Positions 6,011-38,594 of a stretch of 64,000 nucleotides of DNA are shown one piece after another. Both the position numbers and the translations under genes were made by a program. The DNA lies in NCBI RefSeq assembly GCF_964204645.1, contig NC_134036.1:10953859-11017858 (forward strand), written 5' to 3'. Below the pieces are notes generated by a model. It did not search any database and was not told the DNA's origin. It was given only the letters and a program-made list of their open reading frames with translations. The stretch is from Tubulanus polymorphus. Lineage: Eukaryota > Animalia > Nemertea. Each line of letters opens with the position of its first letter. Position 1 is the first letter of the stretch.

Positions 6011-6037
6011 ACCATAAGTAATTTTTTTCCCTTATAA

Positions 6038-10738: not shown

Positions 10739-10744
10739 CCATTT

Positions 10745-11137
10745 AAATATGTTACAAAGTTTGTTTCAAATAAAAAAGTAAATGGTAAAGAATTATATGA
10801 AGATTTATTATTAGCAACACCTAATAAAGATGAATTAGATTTAACCGATGCTAATAAAATATTAGGATCAAACATTGTAAATGAAATATTAGGAGCAAAC
10901 ACTAATAAAGATGATAATGAAAATATAGTTACAGATATTGATATTAAAGATTCTATGAAACATAAAGTAGAAAATAGTGATAAATTTGATTGGATGAATA
11001 AGCATAACAGTGAAACAACTATTGATGATGCGATAAAAAGGGTGAAGAATAAGTATAAAAATAATAAAGAATTTGAAGAAAAAAATTCGGTAGAGAATTT
11101 GAAAAAAATGTTAGGGTATGATAGTGAAAGTGATTAA
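10745..11137 (+). pseudogene. 3' part of an E1 hypothetical gene joined to the truncated pol by a deletion
   Basis: Pol homology ends at DLKT (about 10738). An AT-rich open frame follows, ending LGYDSESD*, with no obvious counterpart in E2. Confidence 0.5.
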
Positions 11138-11170
11138 AATATTAATTATATTTAACTCAAATAATAATAT

Positions 11171-11535
11171 TAGTTCAAAATTGTATAAAATAATAGTAAA
11201 TAAAAAAGGGGGTTTTAAGTATTTAAGGTATCTAATACATATCTAATACATATCTAATTACATATTATTTGAAAATACCTTAAATTATATTTCTTTTTTA
11301 AATTTATATTGAAACCTCAGTAATAATATATAACCTTTATTATTTTCAAACTTATTCATATAATAGTTGAAAAAATAAAAATAAATTGGTTGAAAATTGT
11401 ATAGATAATATTTATTTTAAAAAAGGGGGTTTTAAGTATTTAAGGTATCTAATAGGGTATCTAATACATAGTAGGTATTAGGGTATCTAATAGGGTATCA
11501 GGTATTAGGGTATGTAATACATAGGTATACTAATA
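11171..11535. repeat. E1 convergent intergenic region with direct repeats and (GGTATCTAATA)-type short repeats
   Basis: AAAAGGGGG(G)TTTTAAGTATTTAAGGTATCTAATA occurs twice (about 11203 and 11420); many TATCTAATAC/GGTATTAGG units. Confidence 0.7.
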
Positions 11536-11536
11536 G

Positions 11537-12148
11537 TTATTTTATAAATTTATATTCATAGGGAAATTGTAGTCTCAGTAATAATTTTGAACCTTTATTA
11601 TTCTTTAATTTATTCATATATTCATCATGTAATTCAGTAGGTATAATTTGATTTTCTTCCAATGATTGTTGCATAGATTTTCTATCTTTATTGTAGAATA
11701 AAACTAGAAATCTTATATTCTCCCTAAAGTCTTTAACAATTGAATTATGTTTTTGATTTAAAACCCATGTTGTTATCCCAAAATGTCTCCCAGAGAAAGC
11801 TAAGTAACATAACTCACTTTCTCTCACTTTTGAATCATGTAAATTAGCGCAATCATCTACAATGAATAATGTATTTGATCCTTTATAAGTATCAATTGCT
11901 ATTTTTATACAATTATCTAAATTTTCTTTTACTGTTTTAGGATCTAATATAATAAACTTTTTTATTTTAACTATATCCCTATTATATGTTTTATTCATTT
12001 CATAAGTAGGACCGAATAATATTATATTATCAAAATGATTCTTATAAATAGTTTCTAACAAATCTAATATGAAATGTGTTTTACCACAATTGGTTACTCC
12101 AGTAACTAACATATTATGCGGTTCAAATATAAATAAATCTTTATTCAT
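11537..12148 (-). CDS. A32/FtsK-family packaging ATPase (E1), intact, 203 aa
   Basis: Walker A GVTNCGKT, Walker B LFIVDD, SGRH motif, LNQK. Confidence 0.92.
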   Translation of the reverse strand: MNKDLFIFEPHNMLVTGVTNCGKTHFILDLLETIYKNHFDNIILFGPTYEMNKTYNRDIVKIKKFIILDPKTVKENLDNCIKIAIDTYKGSNTLFIVDDCANLHDSKVRESELCYLAFSGRHFGITTWVLNQKHNSIVKDFRENIRFLVLFYNKDRKSMQQSLEENQIIPTELHDEYMNKLKNNKGSKLLLRLQFPYEYKFIK

Positions 12149-12354
12149 TTATTCTTTTAATTTTACTAGGTAAAATCCATTCATTAAATTTATCATCGTA
12201 TCCTTTATATTTCACCAAAGAATACTTTTTTCCTGTAAGTTTTTGTTTTCAATACTTTTTCTATTTTGTATTCTATTTCATCTGGATTTGGTACAAGTGA
12301 TAATTCTTGTTCATAGAAATAACCTAATATTTCTTCATCTTTTAGATCTTCTAA
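12141..12354 (-). pseudogene. C-terminal (chromodomain) fragment of the E1 integrase
   Basis: Near-identical to E2 33617-33830 (LEDLKDEEILGYFYEQEL...YKIEKVLK); breaks off at 12354. Confidence 0.85.
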
Positions 12355-19600: not shown

Positions 19601-20619
19601 TCATCCTCATTGTTCAAGCTCCACACGACTGTATTCAAGAAGAAGTATAAGCACACATTCATAATGGTCAAAATTTGACCACTTCTTTCATTGTTTCATC
19701 CATATTTCACAATTTCCTAAAAACTCATTGCCTGAAAGGAGATCCACATAGTGGCAAAACAAAATGAAGTTTCAAAATTACCAACCAAATGTAATAACTC
19801 ACTTGTGTAAGCTTACATGTTGATGGGAATTTTATTTTCAAATATTTACAGATTTACTTCGTCAATTTATACTGTTTCAGCATTTGTCCAATTTTCTTTC
19901 TAATTTGGGCCGCGATAACCCCCAATCAACAATTCAGAACATGATCTGGAATGAGACAAAATTATAAAACATTCAAATACTACACACAATTCCAAACAAT
20001 AAATCAATCAATCAATATCCCTAATATCAATCATCTGATGAAAAAAGCCAAAGTTACATTATTATGATAAGTGAAACCAGATCGAAAATAAACGGCGCTA
20101 CTTTTACACTAGCTTATAAATTTTTTCAATCAACACTTACCATAACAGGACTCAAAACCTCTTTTTCAGTAATTTGTTCCGGCTGAAAGTATACGTTTCA
20201 TTCTCCATGTAGATAAATTACTACTCGAGGAAATGTACTGACTCCCTAGATTAATAACGGAAAATTCCATTTTAATTTGTAAATGATTCATTCAAATGTA
20301 GAAAGAATTGGCAAATACTGTTCAATACCGGCTGATCATTCAGTTTAGGAATTATACAGTATAGTATGCAAACGAGTGTCTTTTTCCTGGACATATCGTG
20401 ATTTGATTATTATTCCATTATTTAACTGAAATGCACACGGTTATGAAAATATATTATAGTTTCAAATTACTTTTAATATTTGTTTTTAATGAACTCGACC
20501 ATTCAACCTTTAACCCGAAAGCCCATTACCCCTATTACTCTTAAAATATTCATATAAATGAATAACATTTAAATCATTGAACTTCTAAAATCAATTTTAA
20601 TAAAAAATTTAGTATTAAA

Positions 20620-23600
20620 ATGGAAGCAAATAAGTACTACTGTCCATCATGTAATATCAATATAGATAAATCCCAAAAAGCAAGACACAATAAAACTAAT
20701 ACACATTTAGAGAATAAATTGAAACTAGAATATAAAGATGATATATTAGAAACTAAATTAGAAGAATTAAAGAATGAAAAAGAAACATATAAATGTGATG
20801 CATGTAATCAATCATTCAGTGATAAAAGATATTATAAAGAACATTTAAAATCTATAAGTCATATTAGAAATAAGAATAATGATATTTTAGGTGAAGATTA
20901 TTTTGATAATGATAACGATAAGAAACAGAAGACAATTAAAAGCATAAAAAATAAATTAAACAATAAAAGACCATACATGGAAGATGTAAGAAATTATATT
21001 AATTCATTAGATAATAAAAAAGATATAGAGATAACCGAAGCATTTAAAAGTGATATTGGCCCAGCAGCTATTGAGTTTAAATTTCATAAAGGAAAAACAT
21101 TAGAAGAAAATAAAAAACATTTAGAAAATATGAAAGAAATAATAAAAATAATAACTGATGTTGAATATCCTAAAATAAGTATTTCATCAAAAGTTAAATT
21201 CATAAAATCTGAAGATAAACCAATATATAATATAAATTCTCATTCACAACATATTATATCTAAACAACATATAGATCATAAATTAGATAAATGTTCTAAT
21301 GAAGTAAAAACTAAAATAGAAGAGAAATATTTTGAAGGATCTGGTTTAATATTTGATGAAATAATATTTATGACTTTACATGTTTATAACACAAAATATA
21401 ATAAGTTAACTAAATCAAAACCAATTGATGAAAATAATTTATCATATTATAAAGATGATAGTATAAATGGAACAAGTTATAATAAACTACCATTTAAAAC
21501 TTATGCTGTAATAAATGTACAAAATTTTGATGATAAATGTTTACTATGGACTATAATAAGTTGTTTACATCCTGCAACTAATAATATTTGTAGATTAACT
21601 CATTATAAACCATTTGAAAATAATTATAAGATAGATAAGTATCCTGTTAGAATTAAAAACGTCCCAAAGATAGAAAGAGATAATAATTTAAGAATAAATG
21701 TATTTGATTTAATCAAATTACCAAATACAAAAGGTAACAATATAAAACATTATACATTAGAACCTTTATATCTATCAAAAGATTATGATTCAAATGATGT
21801 TATAGATATATTATATCATGAGAATCATTGTATGTGGATTAAACAAATAGATTTATTTTTTAAATCAGAAAATGATCACCATAAAATATATCTTTGTAGA
21901 AAATGTTTACATAAATTCAGTAATGAAAGTACATTATTAAATCATAAACAATTATGTGAAAATCATGATTATTGTAAATTAGTTTTACCAAATGAAAAGT
22001 ATAAAATATTAGAATTCAAAAACTATGATTACAAAAATAAAGTACCATTTGTAATATATGGAGATTTTGAATCATTAAATAAAGAACTAACTGATCAAGA
22101 TAGAAAAGAAATATATTATAAAAGAAAGAAATTAAATTCTAATGAAAATGATTTTTCAGATGAACCACCAAAAACAAATACAATTAAAAAGATTCATCAA
22201 TCAGCTGCTGCTTTCGGGTTATATATAAAATCTGATTATCCAGAACTAATTGAAAGTGAATATTATCATTACAGAAATGAAAATGTTATCAATGATTTTT
22301 GTGACTTATTAATTGAATATGAAATAAGATTTAGTAAATTATTGAATACAAATATAGAAATTATAATGACAGAAGAATTTAAAGAAGAATTTGTGTTTGC
22401 AGGTAAATGTTATTATTGTGAAAAGATATTTAATTATAAAGATAAAAAAGTAAGAGACCATGATCATTTGAATGGAAAGTTTAGAGGCGCTGCACATGAA
22501 AATTGTAACTTACAAGCTAAGAAAATTAACTTTGTACCAGTTATATTTCATAATCTATCAGGATATGATGCACATTTATTCATCAAACAGTTATGCCATA
22601 AAATAGAAAAAATCAATAATGAAATAGAAATATTAAATTCAAATAGATCAAAAGATAAAATACCAACTTATAAATTTAGAATGTTAGCTAAAACATCTGA
22701 GAATTATATATCATTCCAATTTGGGTGTTAAAGATTTATAGATTCATATAGATTTTTAAATAGTTCATTAGATAACTTACCAAAATCATTAGTTGATGAT
22801 GAATTAAAGATATTAAACAACATTACCCAAATAATGATGATTTTAAATTAATGAGATATAAAGGAGCAATTCCATATTCATTTTATAAGAATCATAATGA
22901 TTTCAATATAACTGAATTATGGAAAGAACAATTCTATGATGAATTAAAAAATGAATATGTTAAAGATGAAGTCTATAATAGAACATTGAATATTTGGAAT
23001 CATTTCAAAATAGAAAATCATGGACAATTAGTAGATATATATTTAAAATCAGATGTATTATTATTAACCGATATATTCGAAAGGTTTAGAGATGTAAACC
23101 TAAAATATTTCAATATTGATCCTTTTCATTGTTATTCATCACCAGGTTTAACATGGGATTGTGGATTAAAATTTACAAATATAAAAATGGATTTGTTAAC
23201 AAATATAGATCAATTATTATTATTTGAAAAATCTATAAGAGGAGGAGTTTCAGGTGTATTAGGGGATAGATATTTCAATGTAAATGATAACCCCGGATAT
23301 AAGTTATTATATATAGATGCAAATAATCTTTATGGTTGGGCAATGATGGAACCACAACCTTATGGAGTATTTGGATTTAAATCTAGAAATCTAGCATACT
23401 GTCCCGAACATAAAACTGTAACTCATGAAGAATTATCAAATTACCAAAAAAGAATTAAACCCGAAAATCATATTCATACAGAAAAGTTAATGGTAACTCA
23501 AGAAGATAAATATAATTATGTAGTACATTATAGAATGTTAAAGTTTTATTTGAATCAAGGAATGATCCTAAAAAAAGTACATAGATATATTTCATTTAGT

Positions 23601-24522
23601 CAATCTAAGTGGTTAGAAAAATATATAGATTTTAACACCAAACAGAGAACTAAAGCTAAAACTGATTTCGAAAAAAGATTTCTTCAAGTTAATGAATAAT
23701 GCATTCTATGGTAAGACTTGTGAAAATATTAGAAATAGAAATGATATTGAGTTAGTCAGTAATGGTAAAAGAATTAGACATTTACAAACATATCCTAAGT
23801 TCATTGGAAACAGAATATTTGATGAAAATTTAGCCGCAGTTAAGATGAGAAGAACATCAATGAAATTTAATAAACCAATCTATGTTGGCGCTTCAGTTTT
23901 AGAATTATCAAAATTACTAATGTATGAATTCTATTATAACGTATTACAACCTCATTTTGGAGAAAAACATATAGAAATATTATATTTTGATACCGATTCT
24001 TACATATTAAAGATAAAAACTGATAACATAACTGATGATTTAAAAACATTAAAACATCATTTTGATTTTAGTAATTATCCTAAAGATCATGAATTGTTTA
24101 GCAATGATAATAAAAAAGTTCCCGGTAAATTCAAAGATAAATTAGGTGGTGAAGAAATGATTGAATTCATTGGTATTAGATCTAAAATGTATTCATATAA
24201 AACTAAAGAACATGAAGCTAAAAAGTTAAAAGGAATAACCAAAAGTGTAGTAGAAAAGAATATTCATTTCAAAGATTACATCAATTGTATATTCAAAGAA
24301 GAAGTTAGAAAACATAAGATGAGATGTTTAAGATCTGAAGATCATGAAATGTTTATTGAAGAAATTGAAAAGATAAGTCTAAACCCATTTGATGATAAAA
24401 GATATATTTTAGATGATGGAATTCATACAGTTGCTTATGGTTGCAATTTAGATGAATACTTAAAATTTAAAAGAGAAGAAACAAAAGAGAACGAGATAAT
24501 GAAAAGAATTCTAACGTGTTAA
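20620..24522 (+). pseudogene. pPolB of E2 (intein-free), with Zn fingers, a vOTU-like region and an EndoVII-like Zn domain
   Basis: DKCLLWTIISCLHP, YGDFES, DHDHLNGKFRGAAHENCN, FHNLSGYD, YIDANNLYGWAM, MNNAFYGK, YFDTDS, KMYS, KLKG, FDDKRY. TAA at 22729 and frameshifts near 22820 and 23670. Confidence 0.95.
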
Positions 24523-24551
24523 TCAAATTTTAATAAAAATATGTTATTAAA

Positions 24552-24911
24552 ATGGAGAGTAAACAAGCACACAGTGAGAACAACAAATTATTTCTAGATA
24601 GAATTAAACATATAACAAATGTAAAATCTGTAGATTATAAACTCAAAAAGTTAACAGAATTAACAATTGATAAGAAATATCTAATTACAAATATTGATAC
24701 AGTTACTAATAACTATGGAGATAAATTAGTTATACACTTAGAATATGAAGGATTAAAAGGAAATACATATAAATTCAGAACATATTTACCTGATAGATTT
24801 CATAGATTATCAAGTGAAGATTTAGAAGAATTATGTTCTGGAGATTTCTATTTCGTATACAAAGGTAAGAATGGGCACCAAGAGGGGCACCATGAAATAG
24901 ATTTCGAATAA
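24552..24911 (+). CDS. Conserved Polinton small protein, 119 aa (possible OB-fold DNA-binding protein)
   Basis: Intact ORF right after pol with motif KKLxEL..Y.I...T..YG...YLPxRF; the fold call is inference. Confidence 0.6.
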   Translation: MESKQAHSENNKLFLDRIKHITNVKSVDYKLKKLTELTIDKKYLITNIDTVTNNYGDKLVIHLEYEGLKGNTYKFRTYLPDRFHRLSSEDLEELCSGDFYFVYKGKNGHQEGHHEIDFE

Positions 24912-24928
24912 GAAAATATGTAAAATAA

Positions 24929-25690
24929 ATGGTAGAATTAAAAGAATACAGAATATTTGTAGATTCTAGAAGACTTACAAATTATAAATCTCATAATTTA
25001 CTAGTTCAATTAGATAGGGAATATAAAAATTGTGTAGATTTAAAATTAGTAAATATAAGTTTATGTAACTCATTTTACAGTATATCGAATAAAACTATTG
25101 AACAAAGAGCTTTTTTAATTTTTAATAAAAACAAAAATGAATGGGTCTATATATATTTAAAACCAGGGTTATATAATTTAGATACATTGGCACAAGAAAT
25201 TAATAGAAAAGCCTGGCACAAATTAGGTAGTAGTTCTGGGTTTAGTATTAGATTTTTAAAAAGTGAGAGTTCTGATAGAATAAAGATAAGGTTGTCTAAT
25301 AGTGAAAAACATAAATTTATCGTAAAAAAACCTATAGCTAAACTGTTAGGAATTCTTCCAGATAGATCTTTTACAAATATTGATGCTGTTACACCAAACT
25401 TAATACCTCACACACATTTTTATATTTATTGCAATTTAATCGATCCTACAAAAACATTCGAAGCAACTAAAGATATAACTTGTAATTCTGGTTTACTAAA
25501 CATTTTACCATTGAAGAATGTTAAAGAATTTGGAACGCAAATAAATTATAATTTAACAGAGTGTGATTTCAAACCTAGCATTCCTCGTTTTAATAATTTT
25601 AGATTAGAAATTAGAAATCATAATGGATACTTAATTGATTTAAATAATTTCCCTGTAATTTATGAATTAGTTATAAGATGTAGAGAGTAA
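24929..25690 (+). CDS. Minor capsid protein (penton), 253 aa
   Basis: IFVDS start, PGLYN, LLGI, FYIYCNLID and C-terminal LEIRNHNGYLIDLNNFPVIYEL, typical of Polinton/virophage pentons. Confidence 0.8.
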   Translation: MVELKEYRIFVDSRRLTNYKSHNLLVQLDREYKNCVDLKLVNISLCNSFYSISNKTIEQRAFLIFNKNKNEWVYIYLKPGLYNLDTLAQEINRKAWHKLGSSSGFSIRFLKSESSDRIKIRLSNSEKHKFIVKKPIAKLLGILPDRSFTNIDAVTPNLIPHTHFYIYCNLIDPTKTFEATKDITCNSGLLNILPLKNVKEFGTQINYNLTECDFKPSIPRFNNFRLEIRNHNGYLIDLNNFPVIYELVIRCRE

Positions 25691-25707
25691 TTTTTTTCAC
25701 TATATAA

Positions 25708-26049
25708 ATGAATATAACTGTTGGACCGAGTATATGTTTTGGGTTTGATTTTAAACATGGTAAAGAAATGAGAATTAAACTAAATGATGTAATTACTGAT
25801 ATAAAAAGTAAATCATTTAACAATGCATCAATGATTGATAAAGAAAATTATAATATAGAAAAAGTAATTGATTTAATTAAAACGCCTTTAGAATATTATG
25901 AATTAAATGAAGATGGAATTATTGAAGATATCAAAAACATATTATCCAAAATATATGATAATCATGAAAGTAGTAATGAAATAAATGTTGAATTAATCAT
26001 AAATAAGATAACTAAATATTTTGATGATAGTAATTTCTTTAATAAATAA
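25708..26049 (+). CDS. Hypothetical viral protein, 113 aa
   Basis: Intact ORF with the shared TAATTTTTT-N-TAAATG start context. Confidence 0.65.
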   Translation: MNITVGPSICFGFDFKHGKEMRIKLNDVITDIKSKSFNNASMIDKENYNIEKVIDLIKTPLEYYELNEDGIIEDIKNILSKIYDNHESSNEINVELIINKITKYFDDSNFFNK

Positions 26050-26271
26050 ATGAGTGATAATAAGTGGATAATAACTGGATTATATAATGGAGCATTACTA
26101 TCAGTTGGAACTGTTGGTTATTCAATGGTATTAAAAAAAGTATTCAAAATGGGAAGTGTTAATGTTGATAGATTTGATATAAATGATATCTTAAAATTAA
26201 CATTAGGAGTTACTTTATCTAATTTAACTTTTGATTATTTGGAAAAACAAAAATATATTCCTCCCATATAA
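26050..26271 (+). CDS. Small hydrophobic viral protein, 73 aa
   Basis: Intact ORF with two amphipathic/hydrophobic segments; the upstream gene's stop forms TAAATG with this start. Confidence 0.7.
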   Translation: MSDNKWIITGLYNGALLSVGTVGYSMVLKKVFKMGSVNVDRFDINDILKLTLGVTLSNLTFDYLEKQKYIPPI

Positions 26272-26295
26272 ATGCGTAATTATTTTACTAAATAA

Positions 26296-26718
26296 ATGGC
26301 TTCTGTAATTATAACTATTATAGGATCAGCAATTGTTAACGCTTTAGCATTTACTGGTGGTGGATATTTATTTAAACATATTGATAAAAATGGTTCATTA
26401 ACAGAACAAAAAAGACGTAACTTAGCGTTAGAGAAATACAATAAATCTGCAGAAGAATATAGAGAAAAAAGACAAAACTATATGGATTATATTAACAAGG
26501 AATTATATGATCAGAAGATTTCACATAGAGATTTTCAATCAGTTGATGATGCAATGAGTTTATATAACGCGGTAACCAATAAAGAAAAATAACATCTATA
26601 CAAACCCAAATTATCAGATTATTATACCCCAAGTAATGAACAGAAGAAATATGAAATAATATGGATTTTAGGTGGAACAGTTATTGTTATATTTGTTGCT
26701 TATAAGTTTACTAATTAG
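26296..26718 (+). pseudogene. Viral membrane protein (N- and C-terminal hydrophobic segments, central coiled coil), one in-frame TAA
   Basis: AIVNALAFTGG..LF...E.KR; frame continues past the TAA at 26590 through PKLSDYYTPS..IIWILGGTVIVIFVAYKF to TAG at 26718. Confidence 0.75.
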
Positions 26719-26738
26719 TAATTTTTTTTTCTAAATAA

Positions 26739-27173
26739 ATGGAAGATAAAGTTGATAATATTGATATTATTCCTCATGATATAAATAAAAATAAATTGAA
26801 AATATATTTAGAAAAACAAATATTAGAATTTGAAAGTGACTTAAAGATAAAAAAGAAAAAATATTTAAAAAGTAAAATTATATATTATTTGATTATAAGT
26901 GGTTCGGTTACAATTAGTTCTGTAATAACATTTCTAGCAATATTCAGTCCATTAACACCATTAGCTATATCAATTGGCGTATTAGGATTAAGTTCAAGTG
27001 TTTTAACTGGTATAAGTTCAAAATTAAATATAAAAAGTAATAAAGAAAAAATTAAAACTAATATAAAAGAAATTAATAAATTGAAGAATACACTAGATTA
27101 TATAATAAGTTTAAATGGCCATATAACAGTTGAAGAACAAGATAAATTATTTAAAGAATTCGTTAATTATTAA
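26739..27173 (+). CDS. Two-TM-helix viral membrane protein, 144 aa
   Basis: Basic helix, hydrophobic hairpin IIYYLIISG...LGLSSSVLTGI, coiled-coil tail. Confidence 0.75.
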   Translation: MEDKVDNIDIIPHDINKNKLKIYLEKQILEFESDLKIKKKKYLKSKIIYYLIISGSVTISSVITFLAIFSPLTPLAISIGVLGLSSSVLTGISSKLNIKSNKEKIKTNIKEINKLKNTLDYIISLNGHITVEEQDKLFKEFVNY

Positions 27174-27189
27174 TTTTTTAATTATATAA

Positions 27190-28424
27190 ATGGGGTTTCC
27201 AAAAGCTTTCCAATATAATAAATCAATTAAATATAATATTCCTGCAATAGATTTTAAGAAAAATATTACATATAGAAATGTAGTTTTAAATTCATTAACT
27301 AATTTAGAAATTTATGTCACTGAATCACAGTTTTTTATTTCTAAAATGGAAAATGTATTTAATACATATGAAGTTACTTTTACTCGAGATGAATATCATA
27401 TATATAAAGTAAAATCTAATATGAAATATTGGCAGAACCAATTAGATTTTGCTGTTTATTGTGCAACAACAGGATGTGGAATAAGTTGGAATGATCATTT
27501 AAATAACTTAGATAAAAATTTGAAGTATTCTGATTTAAAATTAATTCACACAATATTTAGATTTCACACATATTTTCAAATCAGAATAATATTAAATGAA
27601 TTAGAATGTCCTTTACCCGGGTCTAAATATTTTAGAGAATTGGATAATAATATTAATCTATCTAAGTTTTATAAATTGAAGAGTTTGAAATAAAAAGAAT
27701 TGATTATATGCATAGAATTTCAGCTTATCATAATTATAAAATTGATAATAATAATGGTTGGGTTAATTTCATTTTAGAAAATGGTGAAGGTTTTACAAAA
27801 TCAGGTATACAAAGAATAAATCAATCTATTAGAACTTATTTGATATGTATTTTAGGTGCGCAAGTTGAAAAAAGATCCCCAATAATTGGAAATTATAACA
27901 CTTCATTCGATGCGCAGAAATAGTTTAAAGTATTATTTGAAGATTCAATTCATAATGATAAAAATAGATCGATTCCAGAAAACATTGTAAGATATCAAAA
28001 TTATTTAGATAAATCACATATTAGATTAAATTATTGTATAGGCCCTAATCTATTTATTATTTCTAATGATTTAGTATTAAAGATGGGAAACATAATTGGT
28101 TATAATAATCTAATTAAAACTGCAACAATAAATAATTCATTTGGATTAAATGATATAAATAAAAAGATTATCACTGCTCCAAAATTAATGGAAGGTGAAA
28201 AAAATAAAAAACATATTCAATCAACTGAAACTAAAACTAATAATATTAAATTAAATAATGATTCTAAAATAAAAGATTATAATACATCAGAAGATATAAA
28301 AACTGATATTATTCAACATGATATAATTAAACTAAATGATGATAATAAATCCCATGAAAATACTAAATTAGCTATAACTTGTATAGGAATTGTAATCGGA
28401 GGAATATTATATTTTAAGATTTAA
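27190..28424 (+). pseudogene. Conserved Polinton protein with a C-terminal TM anchor, disrupted
   Basis: YWQNQLDFAVYCATTGCGIS, RINQSIRTY..ILGAQ, C-terminal LAITCIGIVIGGILYF. Frameshift near 27690 and TAG at 27921. Confidence 0.75.
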
Positions 28425-28440
28425 TTTTTGTATTATGTAA

Positions 28441-30118
28441 ATGGCAGAAGGTGGAGAAGATTTTCCAATGGATCCTTTAGATGAACCTGGTGTAAGTGAT
28501 GAACAACAACCTGATTTTGGTGAAGCAAGTTTTAGTAATGATAATAAAACAGAATATAATACTAATTTAGATGAAGATGATGATTATGATGGAATTAATT
28601 CTGAATTACGTGAAAAATTAAATAAATATTTAAAAGCTCCTGAAAGTGGTAGAATTTCAACTAGAAGAGAAAAAAAAAGAATTTATGGAACTATTAGAAA
28701 AACAACAAGAAAAATATCCTGATAAACATATGGAATTATATAAAATGAAATCTAGAGTAACAGATACAATTGTTAACGAATTATTACCAATAGTTGTAAT
28801 ACATGAAATTGATACTGAAGATGTTGTAGAACAAATTTTAAAAGATGACCCATATTTCACGAATAATTTAGAATTTAAAAATGATTCATGGTATTATAAT
28901 GTTGAATTAAATAACAAAACTGCATCAATACAATTATCTAAAATGGGTCAAGAAAATATTTTTGAACCTGAAATGTTAGCAAGATCTACAATTGAACGTT
29001 CAAAAGGTGGCGCAGAATTTCTCAGAATTATATGGAATGCACTCGATAGAATAAATAAAGAAGAACCAATTCCTAATATTGATATAAACAAATATTCACC
29101 ATTTAAAAATCCAAATCCAAATCCTACTGATTTTGATCCAGAAATGGAAGAGAATAGAGATCGATTAGATAGATTAAGATCTTCAACACCCGAAACATCG
29201 AGAAGAGACACTCAACCAATTGATAATTATTCAAGTCAATTAAAATTAGAAAAACAAATTGATAGATTAAGAGATTCAGAAAAAGAGATGAATAGTGCTG
29301 GAATAAATCGACTGCAATATTTACTAGAAAAAGGATTTCTTAATTTAACTGATGAAGAATTAGAAACATTTCCCGAACAAATACGTAGAGAAATTAAAGG
29401 TATACAAGTATCAGCTGATGAAATTGCTAATATTAAGATGAGATTTTCTAAAATAACCATGTTAGAAAAAGAATTAGCTAATGCAGATGAAGAATTAAAA
29501 CAATTAGAATTAAATAGAGATCATCAAGTAGTTTATGAAGCTGATTATGAAAGTAGAAAGTTAGCTTTAGTAAAAGAAATAGATGATTTAGAATATAACA
29601 TAAAATTACAAAAAGAAGAAAGTGATACATTATTAAAATCATATGATCTTAATCATATTAAAAAATTAAAAGTTATTTTTAAAGATTTAATAATTAAACA
29701 AGATTCTAAAATATCATTGAAAGATAGAATAAAGTTATTATTTAATTTAGAAGGAATAACAATTCTTTCAATTCTAACAGCTGTAACTATGTTATTTACA
29801 ACAATTGGTTTAGCAATATCAAATGCTTTAAAATCTACTCCTACTCCCAATGAACCGGATAAACCCCCGAATGATAATAATTCTATACAAGATAAAGTTA
29901 AAGATGGTTTAAAGAAATTAGCAAAATATTTATGGGAACTATCTAAAAAATCTGCTGCAGCTTTACCAGGAATTATTGCATCAATTGTTGGTTTTATATT
30001 GAAATCTGCAGGAAACATTATTAACTTTGCTGCTGAACATATTATTTTATTTTTAATTACAGTTGTAAGTGCTATTATTTTTGGGTTAGTGAATATGATA
30101 TCAAAAAATATCAAGTAA
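28441..30118 (+). pseudogene. Large acidic/coiled-coil protein with C-terminal hydrophobic helices (candidate membrane-penetration protein), one frameshift
   Basis: MAEGG start; frameshift near 28650-28680; C-terminal GITILSILTAV... and ALPGIIASIVGFIL...AEHIILFL segments. Directly upstream of MCP. Confidence 0.75.
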
Positions 30119-30157
30119 CCATGATCAAAAATAAATAATTAATTTTTTGTTAAATAA

Positions 30158-31406
30158 ATGAGTGGGAGTTATATCAACCCTTCTAAGAATCATAGAATAT
30201 CTAATGCTATTAAAGCAGAAAGATCACATCATATAATTACTCATAACCCTTCTAATATCAATCCCGATGAAACTTTATATGTTAGAATTCATAGATTAAC
30301 ACAAAATACTTTTTATGTTCCAAATAGTATTTATTTATCAGCTGATATAAAAGTAATTGGTCATGATAATAATTATGTTGTTGATAATGTTGGAAGGTAT
30401 TTGATTAAAAAATTAACTATAAAGATTGGTCCAGAAACAGTTTTCTCATTAGATGATTATAATTTATTTATGCATTATAAAGATTTATGGTTAACTAAAG
30501 AAAATAGAAATAATATGATATTTCAGGGTATTCAATCGGAAAACCATAATAAATTAAGATCGGGAGCTAATGACGCAATAGTAACTCGTGCCACAGATAC
30601 TTTGATAAAAAAAGATTTATGGAAGCAAATATAAAATTCCATTAGACTTTGAATTGATAAATAATAATGCACCTTTATATAAATATGTAATTCAAGAAGA
30701 TATTATATTTGAGATAACATTTGCTCCTGTAAATGAAATTGTATTATCTGGCGTTGTTAAAGATATGGGTTATAAATTATCGAATATATGTTTAGAATAT
30801 GATACAGTAACTGATGAAAATATTTCAAGTATAATTCAAACTCAATACAATCAAGGATTTTCATTATTATATGATTATATTGATAAATTTAAAACCGTAA
30901 CTATTAATGCAAATGATGAAATAATTAATGAGAATATTAACTTCCCAAGAAGATCTATTAAAGGTATATTAATATTTTTTACCATTGCAACATATACTAA
31001 TGGCGCAATAAATGTTGATAATTATTATAATCCTGAAATAACAAAAGTAGAAATAACTATCGAAGGAATAGCAAATAAAATATTTTGTCAAGGAATGAGA
31101 ATGATAGATCAGTGGCCAGAAATTAGAAAACATATTATGAATGAAAGAGTAAAATCATCTGAAAATTGTAACATTAATCAAATTGATTATTATACCGGTA
31201 ATAAATATGCATTATGGTTAGATTTTAGAACAACAGAGGATAATTCATTACATGGTTCTTGAAAAAAACTACAGATCACTAAAGATGGCATACAATTATT
31301 CATGACAAAGAATAAGGGAATCAAAAATTTCAAAATGCACATTTATATTATATCTGACGCGCAATTAAATATTGTAAATTCACAATTAGATAGTGTTATG
31401 TATTAA
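30158..31406 (+). pseudogene. Major capsid protein (double jelly-roll), disrupted
   Basis: ITHNPSNINPDETLYVRI, ICLEYD, NINFPRRSIKGIL, YYNPEITKV.ITIEG, YALWLDFR..DNSLHGS*...DAQLNI. Frameshift in an A-run near 30610 and TGA at 31260. Confidence 0.88.
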
Positions 31407-31438
31407 AATTTTAACTTTAATAAAAATTTATATAATAA

Positions 31439-32605
31439 ATGGAAGGTGGAATATATGAAATACAAACTCCAAGTGAAATGATATCAGATATATATTATAT
31501 ATTACCTTATGATGAATACATTAAATATTTTGGAGATTACTTTAATCAATTCAAATATAGAATAAGTAAAATAAAAGATAATATTGAAACTAAAATAGAA
31601 AATAATATTGAAACTAAAATAGAAGATAAGAATGATATTGAATATAAAATAGAAGATAATATTGAGACTAAAATAGAAGATAGTAATAATATTGAAACTA
31701 AAATAGAAGATGTAACAGCATCTACATCTTATAATATACCCTCTACATATGATATTGAATCAAAAAAAGATTATTATAATCCAAAATATTGTGATGTATG
31801 TAAGATATATATATCATATAAAAATTGGGCATCACATAAGAAATCAAAGAAACATATAGAAAAAGAAAAGAATAATAATGATTATAATATATCAGTTAGT
31901 AATATAAAAGATAATGTTAACCCAATTGAAACTAATGATAACATAGATAATATAACAGATAATGTAATAAATAATGTTAACCCAATCGAAACTAATGATA
32001 ATGATATAACAGATAATGAAATAATTGATGATTCTAAAAAACATTGTAACATTTGTAATTTAGATATTTCTAAAAGTAATTTTTCTAAACATAAAAAATC
32101 TAAGGGGCACATAGAAAATGAAAAAGAATTAATATGTGATTATTGTAATAAAGAAATTGAACCTGTTGATAAAATTACTCATTATGAATCAAAATTACAT
32201 CTAATTAATGTTTATAAAAAAGTGGGTATGTTACCATTGTTAAATAACCCTTTAGAATATATCAAATATTTTGATTATAATATTAACCAATATGAAATAT
32301 TCTATAATTTGTTATTACGTAAATTTTTAGATTATGCAAACGATAATCTTGAACAAATGTATAAATTATTATATTTGAGAAGAAAAGATTCAACTTATTT
32401 GATAATTAATTTTGGATATGATATTGATTTTTATTATTATGATTTTGATGAAAACTTTGAAAAAATAAAAGAAAAAATTAATATGCCTACTGATTATAGA
32501 TTAATGATGGCTCGACTAAACTCAATAAATATACCAAAGACTTATGGAGAATTTGATATAAACGAAGATGATTTTATAAATGTATTAGAAACAAAATTAG
32601 AATAA
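31439..32605 (+). CDS. 388-aa protein with NIETKIED repeats and three U1/matrin-like C2H2 zinc fingers
   Basis: CDVC..HKKSKKH, CNIC..HKKSKGH, CDYC..HYESKLH; intact ORF. Confidence 0.8.
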   Translation: MEGGIYEIQTPSEMISDIYYILPYDEYIKYFGDYFNQFKYRISKIKDNIETKIENNIETKIEDKNDIEYKIEDNIETKIEDSNNIETKIEDVTASTSYNIPSTYDIESKKDYYNPKYCDVCKIYISYKNWASHKKSKKHIEKEKNNNDYNISVSNIKDNVNPIETNDNIDNITDNVINNVNPIETNDNDITDNEIIDDSKKHCNICNLDISKSNFSKHKKSKGHIENEKELICDYCNKEIEPVDKITHYESKLHLINVYKKVGMLPLLNNPLEYIKYFDYNINQYEIFYNLLLRKFLDYANDNLEQMYKLLYLRRKDSTYLIINFGYDIDFYYYDFDENFEKIKEKINMPTDYRLMMARLNSINIPKTYGEFDINEDDFINVLETKLE

Positions 32606-32705
32606 TTATTATAAAACTATTTATATATCTGTAAAACTATTTATATATCTATGCACTAGACGTATGAGTAAGAAAGTAAGAATCCAAGAATCCTTGCCAA
32701 GAAAT

Positions 32706-32822
32706 ATAAATTATAAACATAAATTATAAACATAGATTATAAACATAAATTATAAACATGAATTATAAACATAAATTATAAACATAAATTATAAACATAA
32801 ATTATAAACATAAATTATAAAC
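32706..32822. repeat. Nine tandem copies of ATAAATTATAAAC
   Basis: Counted directly; two units have single substitutions. Bracketed by a 42-bp inverted repeat (32640-32681 / 32940-32981). Confidence 0.92.
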
Positions 32823-33013
32823 ATAGTTTTAATATATGATTTATTCATTATTATATATTTCATTTAATAATTCATATTTCTATGGACTAGACGTACGTAA
32901 GAATCCAAGATTCTTGCCAAGAAAGTAAAAAGGTAAGAATCTTACTTTCTTACTCGTACGTCTAGTACATAGATATATAAATTAGTTTCTATAATATTCC
33001 AAATTATAAATAG

Positions 33014-33624
33014 TTATTTTATAAATTTATATTCATAGGGAAATTGAAGTCTCAGTAATAATTTTGAACCTTTATTATTCTTTTATTTATTCATATATTC
33101 ATCATGTAATTCAGTAGGTATAATTTGATTTTCTTCCAATGATTGTTGCATAGATTTTTTATCTTTGTTATAAAATAAAACTAGAAATCTTATATTCTCC
33201 CTAAAGTCTTTAACAATTGAATTACATTTTTGATTTAAAACCCATGTTGTTATCCAAAATGTCTCCCAGAGAAAGCTAGATAACATAACTCACTTTCTCT
33301 AACTTTTGAATCATGTAAATTTGCGCAATCATCTATAATGAATAATGTATTTGATCCTTTATAAGTATCAATTGCTATTTTAATACAATTATCTAAATTT
33401 TCTTTTACTGTTTTAGGATTTAATATAATAAACTTTTTTATCTTAACTATATCTCTATTATACGTTTTATTCATTTCATAAGTAGGACAGAATAATATTA
33501 TATTATCAAAATGATTCTTATAAATAGTTTCTAACAAATCTAATATGAAATGTGTTTTACCACAATTGGTTACTCCAGTAACTAACATATTATGCGGTTC
33601 AAATATAAATAAATCTTTATTCAT
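33014..33624 (-). pseudogene. Packaging ATPase of E2
   Basis: Nearly identical to the intact E1 ATPase; 1-nt deletion near 33255 and TTA>TAA at 33083. Confidence 0.92.
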
Positions 33625-34714
33625 TTATTCTTTTAATTTTACTAGATAAAATCCATTCATTAAATTTATCATCATATCCTTTATATTTCACCAAAGAATA
33701 CTTTTTTCCTTTAAGAGTTTTTGTTTTCAATACTTTTTCTATTTTGTATTCTATTTCATCTGGATTTGGTACAAGTGATAATTCTTGTTCATAGAAATAA
33801 CCTAATATTTCTTCATCTTTTAGATCTTCTAATTTATAAACAAAAGGTTTAGTTAATATTATCTTTTTAATCTTGAATATTTCTTCTGTAAAATTTGGGG
33901 TATAACCTTTATAAAAGGTTTTTCTATATTTAGATATTCTAACATGTTGTCCAATTTTAAATCTAGGTTCACCGAAATCATGTGTAACAAACGCTCCATA
34001 TAAATTATTCCGTACTATTTCTCAATTATCTTCTTTTCTAGCTTGTATAGGTTTCATATTTATAGAACTATTTTTAGAATTATTATAACCTTTCACTAAA
34101 TCATCTAATATATTTATAGACTCATCGATATATTTATATGTTTCATTAGCAGTAAAATATTTCCACATTCTAGTTTTCAATGTTTTATTAAATCTTTCTA
34201 TAATAGATGCTTTTTTATCTGAGTGTGTTGAAAAATAATCTACATCGTTATCAGATAATAGTTTTTTGAAATGTTTGTTATAAAATTCCTTACCTTCATC
34301 AAATTGTATCTTATCTGGAATAGCTTCTTTAAATATTGATTTAAAAGCATTTGTTACTTCTATTCCAGTTTTATTTTTGATTGGAATTGACCATGCGTAT
34401 CTACTGAATATGTCTATAACATTTAATATCCAGAAATATCCTTTGTTGTATTCTTCTAAGTTCTTCATGTCAATTAAATCTGCTTGCCATTGTTGATCAA
34501 TATATGAAACCATAACTTTTCTTGTTAAATAAGTTTTATCCATTTTCTTGTGTATTTGATATGTTGGTTGATTTTGTAACCATGATTTTAATTCACTATA
34601 TGTTATACCACCATTATCAGATTTAATTTTATTCCATAATTCTGAAACGTTAGAATATGATACTTCACTCTCTGGGTTATAATATAAATCTCTTAAATAT
34701 TTTTCTTTTTTCAT
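33617..34714 (-). pseudogene. Retroviral-like (rve) integrase with C-terminal chromodomain, one in-frame TGA
   Basis: WQADL, IDIFSRYAW, QFDEGKEF, IERFNKTLK. Frame continues past the TGA at 34022 through FKIGQHVRIS, KGYTPNF, YKIEKVLK...VKYKGYDDKFNEW. Confidence 0.93.
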
Positions 34715-34720
34715 CTTATT

Positions 34721-35088
34721 TTAATCCATTAATAATAACTTAGATATAGTTTCAATGGCTTTATGATTTGACTTATTTTCTGGTATGATAGGTTTATTGT
34801 CATTGGAATCATCTTTATCATCAGATTTGAATTTTGATTTATATATTACACCGGATAATATAATAACTGTTACTAATCCAATTGTAATATATAATTTATA
34901 ATTACTTCCAGCATTAGAAGAATTAGATGGATTATCATTCGTATCAATATCAGATAAAGTCTGTGATTCATTTATATCAGTTAATTTCTTTTTCTTAGCT
35001 TTTTTTAATTCTGAAGATCTTTTACCTAATTCTCTTGCCAATTTAATTTGTTTCTCGGATCTAGGCTTTTTCTTACGCCATCACTCAT
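34721..35088 (-). pseudogene. Basic single-TM viral protein, probable frameshift near the 5' end
   Basis: TAAATG start at 35088 overlapping the upstream stop; TM LYITIGLVTVIILSGVIY. Confidence 0.6.
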
Positions 35089-35682
35089 TTATTTTAGTTA
35101 ATTTTTGTTCTGATTCATTTTCTGTTTCGACGTTTGGTTGTAGTACATCTGTTTCGTTCTTACCTGATTTACATTCTATAGGTTTGATGTTCGAAAATGT
35201 TATGACACCAGTAGAAATTAATGTCATAACCGATCCTAATTGAAATGAAGCATAACCAACCCATTTTTGTAATTCAGTCATAACTAAGTAGTCACTTTTT
35301 AAATCACTATATAATTTATTTAATCACCAATTGGTATTAACTGGTTACATAACTTAGAATAACATTTGACAATACCATCTGAAATAGAATCATTTATTCT
35401 AGCTAATCTAGCTTCTTCATAAATCTTAAAATATTTTTTTACTTTATCTGGTTTCATAGAGTCTAGTTCTTGAAAAGTAATGATTCTATTTAAAAACTCA
35501 TTAGTTTTTCCACCGGCAATCAATAGTTCTAGATGATGCTTACAATATAAATAGTATTCATAATCTATATTGTTATTAACTTGAATAGAATTAGAAACAA
35601 CTGTATCTTTATTATCACTAATACCTAAATCATCTAATGTTTTTTTAATATCAATACTATTCTTATTAGATTTCTTTGACAT
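35081..35682 (-). pseudogene. Hypothetical viral protein split by a frameshift near 35320
   Basis: ORFs 35320-35703 and 35081-35281 join with a 1-nt shift (…NKLYSDLKSDYLVMTEL…). Confidence 0.6.
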
Positions 35683-35984
35683 ATATATTAGAGAAAAAAG
35701 CAAAAAAAATATTTTAAGTATTCTTCAAATGATACCAGTATCTCTTTAGATTAATACTAGCTTAGTTAAAGGTAAAGAATTTTAGTATTAGTTATTGTTT
35801 TTTTAGTATTTTTTATTTGTGATATAAAGTATTCTTTTTTGAAAAGAAAATATTAAAAATATAATAGAATTCACAAGCTAGTTGAAGTTATTGTTTTTTA
35901 AATACTTTTTTATTTAAAATCTATTTGATATCTCACTACTTTTGTTTATCTATTAGGAGCAGTAATTATAACTGTCCAGATAAG

Positions 35985-36728
35985 TCATTTCGGATCCTTG
36001 ATATCAAATTCCTCAACGTATTGTTCATTATTTGGATCATTATTCCATAATTCAATAAATTTCTTTGCCTTTGTTAACTGTTCTAAATATAACTGTAAAT
36101 CTAGTTTATAAGATTTAATTATGTTTTCCTTCTTTTCTAAAGGTCTTAAATTCTTCCAATTCCAAATAAGTTTTTTATTGTATTCATCATTCATGTTAAA
36201 TTTAGAAATCGGTAACGTATGATCAATATGGTAATAATCCCCATAATTATCTATATTCATTTTATCATCGAATTGAAATATAATCCATGATTTGAGAAAT
36301 TCATCTGAACAACCCAATAAATTAGATAATGTTTCTTAATGTGTTTCTTTGTTGAATAATTGTGTTAATCTAGATCTTAAGCATTGTTTCAATCTAAAAT
36401 TAAGATCTGTTTGATATCTTTCTCTCATATATTCTGCCATATAATAATTATAATGTTCTATATTATCTTCTCGATATTGTTTAGTATATAGTTTAGTGCA
36501 AGTTTTACAGCAATATTGAAGACCATCTTTGCTAATCTTACGCTTACTAAATTCTGTTAATGATTTATCTAATTCACACTTAGAACACTTCTTGTAATAT
36601 ATATTTATAACACGTGTTATTTGTAATATTGATAATTTGTGGTTGTTCTGGTTCCATTTATTATATGTATTTTTTACTAAATTGGTTAATATTTTAGAAT
36701 CCTCTTCCATTTCTTCGACCAACGTCAT
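35985..36728 (-). pseudogene. Free-standing HNH/EndoVII-type endonuclease of the NCLDV type, one in-frame TAA
   Basis: N-terminal CSKC...DGL...CKTC, then LRSRL, LGCS.EFL..WI..QF...M...NYG..HIDH.LP...NLRPL...EN..K. Both ORFs are in the same frame. Confidence 0.8.
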
Positions 36729-36775
36729 CCTTTTTCATTCCTCGTTGCTTTTGATAAGTTGTTTCGATTCCTTGA

Positions 36776-37125
36776 TATCTAAATCATACCACTGAGCAAA
36801 CCGCGCATTCATGCGCGCTTTTGATCAATGCGCATGCGTTAATCATAATTATATTTACATAATGAATATATAATTATGTAAATAGAAACAACCGACATGA
36901 AATATCTAAACGTGTTCGCATTAGGCAAACCGCGCATTCATGCGCGCTTTTGCTTAATGCGCATGCGTTAATCCTAATTATATATTCATTATGTAAATAG
37001 AAACAACCGACATGGAATATCTAAATCATACCACTGAGCAAACCGCGCATTCGTGCGCGCTTTTGATCAATGCGCATGCGCTAATCATAATTATATTTAC
37101 ATAATGAATAGAAACGACCGAACAT
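36776..37125. repeat. Three tandem 110-127-bp units with GCGCATGCG palindromes
   Basis: Units start at 36776, 36903 and 37018; each has AAACCGCGCATTC(A/G)TGCGCGCTTTT and ATGCGCATGCG. Confidence 0.85.
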
Positions 37126-37649
37126 AAAAATTCACCAAACAGATTTACACAATACATTATACAAGTTGTTCGGCCGTTTCTTCCAATACATCATTTGATT
37201 TCTATAAATACAATTTATAATTACAAACATTTTTTCAATTGCTGGTAAATATTTAACTACATCAACAAATGTTAAACTTAATCATTGGAGTCTTAATGTT
37301 TTTGAAATCCTTATATAGTTTCTTCGTCGATCTTTTGGCGATTCTTGTGTTTCTTGTGCTTATTTCTATTGGTTCGATATCCATTGCTGTTGATTCCTCA
37401 GTCAGAAAGAGTATCTTGAGTTTCTCTATCACTTCTTGATGCGTATGGCGTTTTATTAATCAAAAAGATATTAGCGGCAACTCTAGCCATCTAAAAGATA
37501 TACTAAATACACTTAAATATATCTAAAGGTTTCATATTTAATAGCCCTAATAACTACAACAAACAGTACTTACATTTAGATTTATAATTGTAAACTATAA
37601 TCTCCTAATTTCGTTTCGATAGATAGAATATCCTGAGCACAATATTACA

Positions 37650-37860
37650 GCGTCTGTTCATTTCCGGGGCGATTTCTAGAATGACACGTCGTTGATTATG
37701 CCACGTCATCTGGTTCCGGCGCGCCTTTTCTAGAATATTCTACACGTTTCTGATTATGACGTGTCATCTCTATTCAGAGTTCCAGCACACCTTTATAGAA
37801 TTTTCTATACACGTTTGTAATATTATGAGTCATAATGTCTCGGCGTAACGGCTGTAACAG
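37650..37860. promoter_or_regulatory. Cluster of putative host TF sites (HSE, CRE/UPRE, AP-1, ETS)
   Basis: TTCTAGAATATTC 37728-37740, CCACGTCA 37701-37708, TGACGT about 37757, TGAGTCA 37826-37832, TTCCGG twice. Confidence 0.45.
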
Positions 37861-38244
37861 CTGTGAATTTATAGATTTATTCCATAGCTCTTTACATAGA
37901 ATGTATATAGGTTCAAATAGAATCATGTTCTAGTTTAAACATCGGATCCTTGATATCAAATTACTCAACGTATTGTTCATTATTTGGATCATTATTCCAT
38001 AATTCAATAAATTTCTTTGCCTTTGTTAACTGTTCTGAATATAACTGTAAATATTCTAGTTTCAATTTATTCTCTAAATGTGTTTTAGTTTTATTGTGTC
38101 TTGCTTTTTGGGATTTATCTATATTGATATTACATGTTGGACAGTAGTACTTATTTGCTTCCATTTCTATACTAAATTTTTTATTAAAATTGATTTTAGA
38201 AGTTCAATGATTTAAATGTTATTCATTTATATGAATATTTTAAG

Positions 38245-38594
38245 AGTAATAGGGGTAATGGGCTTTCGGGTTAAAGGTTGAATGGTCGAGTTCATTAAAA
38301 ACAAATATTAAAAGTAATTTAAAACTATAATATATTTTCATAACCGTGTGTATTTCAGTTGAATAATAGAATAATTATTATTATTTGAATATATTTGATT
38401 ATATGAATTTGTGTATTGTAAATAAATCAATATGCTTTTTAAATTATTGATATCTTAGAATAAATATTTAGTTATAATATAAAATGCACACGGTTATGAA
38501 AATATATTATAGTTTTAAATTACTTTTAATGTTTTGTTTTTTAATGAGCTCGACCGTTCGACCTTTGATCTGAAAGCCCATTACCCCTATTACT
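38245..38594. repeat. 350-bp terminal imperfect palindrome (arms about 110 bp, AGTAATAGGGG...CCCCTATTACT)
   Basis: 38245-38355 is the reverse complement of 38482-38594, separated by an AT-rich spacer. Confidence 0.88.

Follow-up and report, generated by a model that had tools for sequence, protein, structure and literature searches.

The window analysed here, 64,000 nt of the genome of the ribbon worm Tubulanus polymorphus (NC_134036.1, positions 10,953,859 to 11,017,858), carries E2, a decayed Polinton-like element of ~18 kb (20406..38594; right terminus at 38594, left end truncated). Judged by sequence, its gene starts are best fitted by a poxvirus-type post-replicative promoter. The underlying TAAATG starts are real, conserved and lineage-specific. 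We consider E2 to be a virophage-like parasite whose poxvirus-type promoters would be read by a poxvirus-like helper, at a probability of about 0.6; its genes likely use the transcription machinery of such a helper virus, itself as yet unseen. Helper-driven, poxvirus-type transcription had been proposed in an earlier note on this DNA; the motif, its spacing and its lineage conservation supported the proposal in part, but no helper virus was found.

The start-site motif in E2 and its relatives

TAAATG was present at 12 of the 16 E2 gene starts, and TAAATG or TAAAATG at 14, versus 43 and 52, respectively, of the other 743 ATGs of the element (binomial, 2e-12 and 7e-15). In 100,000 draws from the composition of the 30 nt upstream of each start, the counts never rose above 8 (TAAATG) or 9 (both forms). 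The enrichment therefore exceeds both the composition draws and the other ATGs, and AT content, which the earlier note had listed as a possible source of the motif, does not account for it. All other ATGs and local shuffles served as controls; in-frame internal ATGs are unusable, since TAA cannot precede them. E2 starts agreed with the N termini of intact relatives wherever tblastn alignments extended that far.

All 11 plus-strand starts were as previously described, with TAAATG at 24929, 25708, 26050, 26296, 26739, 27190, 28441, 30158, and 31439 and TAAAATG at 20620 and 24552. TAAATG was also confirmed at the packaging ATPase (33624, minus strand), at 35088 (minus strand) and, in a second truncated element of the same family (E1, 5957..12354), at the DNA polymerase (6038) and the ATPase (12148, minus strand). 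The integrase start, held to lack the motif, does so in E2 (TAAGATG); it is TAAATG in the related locus L002, and the motif is missing in L003. The HNH endonuclease had been placed in the same category, but its likely start at 36657 (minus strand) is a TAAATG behind an A-rich box; the frame breaks shortly after this position, and the match to an intact relative starts at 36611. A minus-strand gene at 35682, absent from the earlier note, has a T-run but TATATATG instead of TAAATG.

Relatives were collected with a C-terminal capsid fragment, which returned 56 proteins among 322 candidates, and with a profile of 47 capsids, which returned metagenomic loci (the best 80 of 218 confirmed) and three loci from prokaryotic bins. 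An IQ-TREE phylogeny of 60 capsids, computed by quick search only, resolved clade A (L001 to L010, support 99), clade B (eight loci, 100), and clade C (36 rows, 100), with a few unplaced rows termed group D; the sisterhood of A and B was not settled by this tree. Starts were counted at the first ATGs of conserved-family genes with 30 nt upstream in 58 loci, leaving out two duplicates and 23 loci that lacked a long capsid ORF (open reading frame). TAAATG stood at 30 of 33 starts in clade A, 21 of 22 in clade B, 0 of 24 in group D, and 2 of 189 in clade C, counts that are not independent trials, as the elements are related by descent, and that are lowered in GC-rich elements, where first ATGs overshoot the true starts. 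Nine AT-rich clade C loci had TAAATG at 1 of 33 starts, TAAAATG at 5, and A at -3 in 25, and AT-rich viral contigs (GC≤30%) had TAAATG at 19 of 252. The motif-bearing loci of clades A and B span capsid identities of ~30-83% and G+C contents of 20-44%, the motif persisting between capsid lineages as little as ~30-37% identical, and intact relatives carry the motif at nearly every gene, accessory genes such as the deoxynucleoside kinase (dNK) of L001 included.

Upstream boxes, poxvirus promoters and ordinary explanations

In the 10-nt window lying 8-17 nt before the initiator, eight E2 genes had 6-8 T (T-class) and seven had 5-8 A (A-class), with the integrase ambiguous. The seven contiguous genes from 25708 to 30158 were all T-class. 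Across E2 and loci L001 to L003, capsid and membrane-type core genes were T-class, and the ATPase, zinc-finger and 24929 genes were A-class wherever seen. The two promoter classes of the earlier note were thus recovered as a bimodal pattern in E2, but several genes switch class between elements; a strict temporal programme appears only partly supported, and the classes may be two ends of a single A...T motif. Of the boxes described previously, TAATT[TA]TTT was exact at 25688, 26277, 26719, 27171, 30140, and 6019 but had one mismatch at 28422; 26031 is an additional near match. At 25688, 27171, and 28422, the TAA with which this box opens is the preceding gene's stop codon; the conserved part of the box is an A and then a T-run. 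The A-rich box TTTAATAAAAA was confirmed at 20596, 24529, and 31416, and occurs also within a gene at 25121 and in a repeat copy at 38188 (minus strand).

A clade A profile of 43 starts had T in 93% at -12 and A in 79% at -18. Relative to TAAAT, T peaks 9-10 nt ahead and A 14-15 nt ahead; T occupied the 10th base before TAAAT in 22 of 24 core genes, and the A-class box ended 10-12 nt before TAAA in five E2 genes. Vaccinia late promoters, in the published descriptions available, place TAAAT(G) over the start codon and, 10 nt upstream, have a conserved T within a group of further Ts, and intermediate promoters use TAAA without that T, with AT-rich sequence 15-19 nt upstream and then T (PMC11980589; PMC5294985). 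E2 thus has, like vaccinia, TAAAT(G) or TAAA at the start codon and T-rich (late) or A-rich (intermediate) sequence at similar spacing, and the upstream peaks fit the vaccinia late/intermediate geometry within 1 nt.

It could be argued that TAAATG is not a promoter but a product of tight packing, through stop-start coupling and upstream poly(A) signals, combined with an AT-rich translation context. TAAATG always sets an in-frame stop ahead of the ATG, the A-class box, like many AATAAATG starts, contains AATAAA, and three TAATT boxes include an upstream stop codon, as noted above. However, TAA was the upstream gene's stop at only 4 of 63 starts (1/12 in E2, 1/30 in clade A, 2/21 in clade B), and the motif occurs at the first gene after the terminal repeat and at divergent pairs, where each strand has its own TAAATG and the two are separated by 14-37 nt without an intervening stop (L007, L009, L052, L054, L059, and L073). 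Base -3 is T in 51 of 55 starts of clades A and B, opposite to Kozak preference and therefore against Kozak context as the source of TAAATG; in clade C it is a purine in 147 of 189. The compact AT-rich clade C elements and the AT-rich viral contigs likewise lack the motif, in spite of their composition. The AATAAA box of the zinc-finger gene keeps a distance of 20, 21, and 21 nt to the ATG, whereas its distance past the upstream stop is 12, 84, and 63 nt; it tracks the ATG and not the stop, which argues against a poly(A) signal of the upstream gene, and pPolB (DNA polymerase B of the protein-primed type) is preceded by the AATAAA-containing A-class box though no gene lies upstream. Neither Kozak context nor adjacent stops, both raised in the earlier note, explain the motif, and this account is largely refuted and very improbable.

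Across 78 starts, no peak of TATAWA, TATAAA, or TCAKT, as for an RNA polymerase II (Pol II) TATA box or initiator, was found between -100 and -11, and no poxvirus early core was found upstream. TTTTTNT was depleted in clade A (7 versus 22) and not in E2 (6 versus 7.7).

Candidate readers of the probable promoters

Under helper dependence, the E2 start sites would serve as late and intermediate promoters, on which a co-infecting helper's RNA polymerase would act in the cytoplasm. Any virus or linear plasmid that has a polymerase of the poxvirus type could be this helper. By analogy with vaccinia, transcription would start inside AAA and slippage would add a 5' poly(A) leader, which would replace the 5' untranslated region and supply a purine at -3; T at -3 would be tolerated because this leader would be added. 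Membrane and capsid genes would be expressed late, from T-class sites, and the polymerase, ATPase, and zinc-finger genes somewhat earlier, from A-class sites. By analogy with mavirus, the integrated element would be silent and be switched on in the helper's factory, a step that we place after helper DNA replication because no early-type promoter was found. It would then copy itself with pPolB, be packaged, and re-integrate through its rve integrase.

The transcription apparatus itself was sought in the elements. Neither the 26 ORFs of the window nor the clade A or B ORFs among 110 scanned ORFs of relatives (partial loci) gave a match to a polymerase subunit, TBP, TFIIB, or VLTF. Two loci outside the TAAATG clades encode VLTF3-like genes (L064:5746-6387, minus strand, E=1e-16; L046:6543-7052, plus strand, E=6e-4), and tblastn with these proteins matched nothing in the window, in clade A, or in clade B.

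Several observations weigh against helper dependence, and E2 also departs from vaccinia in some respects. The helper search found the E2-type capsid, pPolB, and HNH families in no viral contig, and of 138 viral loci chosen by dNK homology or the A-class pattern, not one had TAAATG at most starts; scanning viral contigs for the A-class pattern produced 58 single hits, all of them outside TAAATG-rich loci, and relatives of the L001 dNK in viral contigs were distant (28-39%), giving no helper signal. In the literature searched, no report of a marine-invertebrate poxvirus came up. A self-encoded factor is possible among the E2 genes that have no assigned function (25708, 27190, 31439, 35088, and 35682). 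Compared with vaccinia, E2 has no detected polymerase or stage factors and no early-type promoters, its T peak at the 9th base before TAAAT is 1 nt closer than described, and a gene's class can change from element to element: pPolB has an A-class box in E2 but a T-class box in E1, and 24552, 25708, the HNH gene and one homolog of 35088 take the other class in L001 or L002. The E2 coding strand (10.7 kb) does not avoid AATAAA (43 versus 45.4 in synonymous shuffles), which speaks for a helper, but the test has no positive control, as GC-rich clade C was not significantly depleted either (16 versus 20.7). Short head-to-head gaps, considered as a way to tell Pol II from a helper, were rejected because clade C, which lacks TAAATG, has them too.

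Copy number is a further point. Depth in run X6 was ~250-970 across most of E2 versus ~60 in the flanks, falling to low values in some bins within the 28441 and 31439 genes, so the E2 family is multi-copy and variable in the host species. At 38594, 1,462 reads of this run exit E2 into dissimilar flanks (agreement 0.34). Many copies are more readily explained by nuclear transposition than by repeated co-infection of the germ line; the high copy number thus argues against a strict need for a helper, or else would mean that germ-line co-infection is frequent.

High copy number would also fit nuclear activity, as in the alternative that the promoter is read in the nucleus by host Pol II, redirected by a factor of the element or of a sister element. 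The model for this would be VLTF3-bearing small viruses that have no polymerase; the sister elements L064 and L046 encode such proteins, and one of the five E2 genes with no assigned function is a zinc-finger protein. Against it, no VLTF3, TBP, or TFIIB match occurs in E2 or in clade A/B loci, the VLTF3 carriers belong to lineages without TAAATG, and AATAAA is not avoided in coding strands, a weak test. A Pol II transcript initiated within TAAAT would carry a leader of 0-2 nt, and one initiated further upstream would keep T at -3, both unfavourable by the rules of translation. We regard this alternative as unlikely.

Less likely again is that the promoters owe their poxvirus type to ancestry or to a dependence now past and have become vestigial, the copies spreading as nuclear transposons and being expressed by read-through or from terminal repeats. 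In its favour, E2 and E1 consist mostly of broken genes, the motif is missing at the integrase start in E2 and L003, and the host has many copies. Yet the motif is kept at 51 of 55 starts among elements whose capsids are 30-83% identical and whose G+C content ranges from 20 to 44%, for which continuing selection is needed, and intact relatives have it at nearly every gene, the accessory dNK included. Loss of function in this sense is therefore quite improbable.

A poxvirus-like helper would place E2 beside known parasites of large DNA viruses. Mavirus, the endogenous mavirus-like elements (EMALEs) of Cafeteria, Sputnik, and Gezel-14T (PgVV) are, like E2, small integrating double-stranded DNA viruses with one shared promoter motif; they differ in having protist hosts, Imitervirales helpers, TCTA or AAAATTGA motifs, and experimentally shown dependence, whereas E2 has an animal host and a poxvirus-type motif fused to the ATG, and no helper was found for it. 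According to the published text available, gene promoters of mavirus, Sputnik, and Gezel-14T match those of the helper virus (PMC8547959; 10.1101/2022.07.28.501842), and EMALE types carry different motifs that are read as different helpers (PMC8547959). Entomopoxvirus-associated Polinton-like viruses (AHEV_PLV1/2, CBEV_PLV1, and Ca_PLV1) also have animal hosts and are proposed poxvirus parasites, the link to poxviruses being that both occur together in occlusion bodies (Barth et al. 2024, PMC11296320). As described there, they are set apart by an adenain protease and the lack of an rve integrase, whereas E2 has rve and no detected protease; the available text of that paper contains no promoter or motif analysis.

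Polintons/Mavericks (Polintoviricetes, adintoviruses) share with E2 an animal host, a length of 15-20 kb, terminal inverted repeats (the left end of E2 being truncated), pPolB, an rve integrase, an A32 ATPase, and a double-jelly-roll capsid; E2 differs in having no detected cysteine protease and several membrane-type core genes. The capsid is not of the virophage type (Virophaviricetes/Lavidaviridae), as the model of the L001 major capsid protein (MCP), a double jelly roll with a predicted local distance difference test score (pLDDT) of 90, matched iridovirus and PBCV-1 capsids best (E 2e-16), above mavirus (E 1e-10). This ranking bears on taxonomy, not lifestyle. The yeast plasmids pGKL1 and pGKL2, of which pGKL1 relies on pGKL2, are protein-primed linear elements with a TAAAN initiator, but unlike E2 they have an ATNTGA early-type upstream element, no capsid, and their own polymerase in the system. 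Their initiator is described as yielding 5' poly(A) leaders via a poxvirus-like polymerase, with polymerase slippage adding the leader in both vaccinia and pGKL (PMC6211774). The word "promoter" does not occur in the available text of four Polinton papers (PMC8502044; PMC4028283; 10.64898/2026.06.19.733378; 10.1101/2024.03.23.586382), and a literature search short on subscription journals and without supplements found no paper describing TAAATG promoters in Polintons.

Start sites in the sister lineages differ. TATA lay within 14 nt of the ATG at 20 of 35 starts in AT-rich C elements and 10 of 15 in AT-rich D elements, with TATAGA in D, versus 14 of 33 in clade A, so that the contrast is modest. 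By sequence, the TATA-type starts of C and D may resemble the asfarvirus late initiator, given as TATATA in the accessible part of one source (PMC5294985). In GC-rich clade C, WTTRAAS occurred within 70 nt upstream at 64 of 175 starts versus 37 of 1,573 coding windows, with a peak near -40; as a lead, it may resemble the TTGA core of the mimivirus early motif or the pGKL upstream core. Directly before the ATG, TATA, TATAGA, or TATAAAAG is seen in L046 (4183-9361), L011, L062, L064, L020, and L013, and in L046 TTTTCTGC lies ~20 nt upstream. WTTRAAS loci (ATTGAA, TTTGAA, or ATTAAA) include L014, L016, L017, L043, and L051.

These motifs parallel the EMALE types with their differing motifs, as far as the latter are described (PMC8547959). 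We tentatively raise the possibility, which we hold somewhat less probable than its negation, that the widespread protease-less invertebrate Polinton lineage comprises virophages of animals whose sub-lineages have each adapted to their own class of large DNA virus, with poxvirus-type TAAATG in the clades of E2, asfarvirus-late-like TATA/TATAGA next to the ATG in others, and mimivirus-early-like WTTRAAS ~40 nt upstream in the GC-rich clade. If true, promoters would be a readable record of undiscovered helpers, including a poxvirus-like virus of ribbon worms, and integrated copies could serve as inducible antiviral defence. Animal Polintons could be autonomous nuclear viruses, transposons, or virophages, and the accessible text of the literature examined contained no demonstration that they depend on a helper. 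A poxvirus-type promoter code makes helper dependence cheaply and directly testable and predicts poxvirus-like viruses in marine invertebrates, and the differences in motif between lineages point to a means of inferring helpers from nothing but the integrated elements.

Gene content and setting of E2 and E1

The window holds two AT-rich islands (20-28% G+C) in host DNA of ~37% G+C. E2 has a 328-nt inverted repeat (20406-20733 / 38051-38378, 97%) and the terminal motif AGTAATAGG at 38594 (minus strand), and most of its genes are broken, as judged by the ORF survey and tblastn to relatives. pPolB (20620..24522, plus strand; three ORFs; PF03175, E=2e-10; tblastn to the L064 pPolB) is broken, and its A-class promoter-like box with TAAAATG (20596..20622, plus strand) and first codons sit within the terminal repeat.

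The next plus-strand genes are given with their boxes. A 119-aa gene with an A-class box and TAAAATG (24552; 24529..24911) has, in a profile search of its family, no Pfam match and no significant PDB match; an atlas neighbour (PF17427, 0.88) offers the lead that it is a candidate phi29-type single-strand binding protein. The 253-aa gene 24929 (A-class, TAAATG; 24905..25690) is 42% identical to its L001 homolog, which carries TTTTAATAAAAAA...TAAATG upstream; we take its product to be a candidate minor capsid (penton) protein by its N-terminal motif. Seven genes with a T-class box and TAAATG follow: 25708 (113 aa, no assigned function; 25688..26049); 26050 (73 aa, hydrophobic core gene; 26031..26271), the sole E2 start where TAA doubles as the upstream stop; 26296 (hydrophobic core gene with a premature stop; 26277..26714), 79% identical to a 139-aa L001 protein over 26296-26712; 26739 (SLATT-like two-helix membrane gene; 26719..27173; weak PF18142, 77% to L001); 27190 (conserved core gene of ~440 aa, broken; 27171..28424); 28441 (conserved coiled-coil/membrane core gene, broken; 28422..30118); and 30158, the double-jelly-roll major capsid gene (broken; 30140..31406; 74% to the L001 MCP). 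The 27190 family has invariant Q, C, C, and H residues, and the model of its L001 homolog (L001:2996-4324; pLDDT 79) had no fold match in BFVD; the protein is a candidate unrecognised enzyme. PDB profile searches with the capsid and two core families returned nothing significant.

The last plus-strand gene, 31439 (A-class, TAAATG; 31416..32605), encodes a 388-aa C2H2 zinc-finger protein, and its L002 and L003 homologs keep the same box 21 nt ahead of the ATG. As a lead, its C-terminal half neighbours hypothetical clusters of nucleocytoplasmic large DNA viruses (NCLDVs) at 0.87-0.89.

On the minus strand lie the A32-like packaging ATPase (33624, A-rich box and TAAATG, broken; 33017..33646; PF04665, E=1e-8); the rve integrase (TAAGATG, broken; 33623..34714; PF00665, E=4e-10; 81% to that of L002, where a chromodomain is present); a small gene, 35088 (A-class, TAAATG, broken; 34724..35110); 35682 (conserved core gene of ~210 aa with the T-run and no TAAATG, broken; 35183..35705); and the HNH endonuclease (A-class box and TAAATG at 36657, broken; 35985..36680), whose relative in L005 matches phage endonuclease VII/HNH families. 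No Pfam match to an adenain-type cysteine protease was found among the scanned ORFs of E2 and L001 to L003, and one candidate core gene for the protease had no fold match in BFVD.

E1 begins with a terminus-like AGTAATTGG at 5957. Its pPolB (from 6038; T-class box at 6019, TAAATG) contains an intein (9600-10680), apparently with a homing-endonuclease part (weak domain matches), which is absent from the E2 pPolB, and its ATPase runs from 12148 (minus strand; TAAATG). The earlier note had called the intein and the HNH gene NCLDV-type; the domains were recovered, weakly or via a relative, but the HNH gene had no relative in viral contigs.

Among the relatives, L001, the closest intact one, carries its dNK gene at 10340-10981 (minus strand) with a T-class TAAATG promoter-like site, and this dNK has three close homologs at 60-67%. 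In the P0012 cluster, capsid homologs (57%) carry annotations as hypothetical proteins of Bartonella; they lie on short contigs and are likely host-animal contamination of those assemblies.

Within E2, the right terminal repeat (38245-38594) has an internal inverted repeat with arms of ~113 nt and a 126-nt spacer, which could make a terminal hairpin. Three ~94-nt repeats with a GCGCAT-rich palindromic core lie within 36775-37110, between the HNH gene and the right repeat, and a 13-nt tandem array (32676-32857) separates the converging gene blocks. Outside the elements are single-exon host genes for FMRFamide-receptor-like G protein-coupled receptors at 16533-17495 and 59853-60956; the latter has 70% identity to a Tubulanus polymorphus protein, and all 11 of its matches at E≤1e-20 are from Tubulanus polymorphus.

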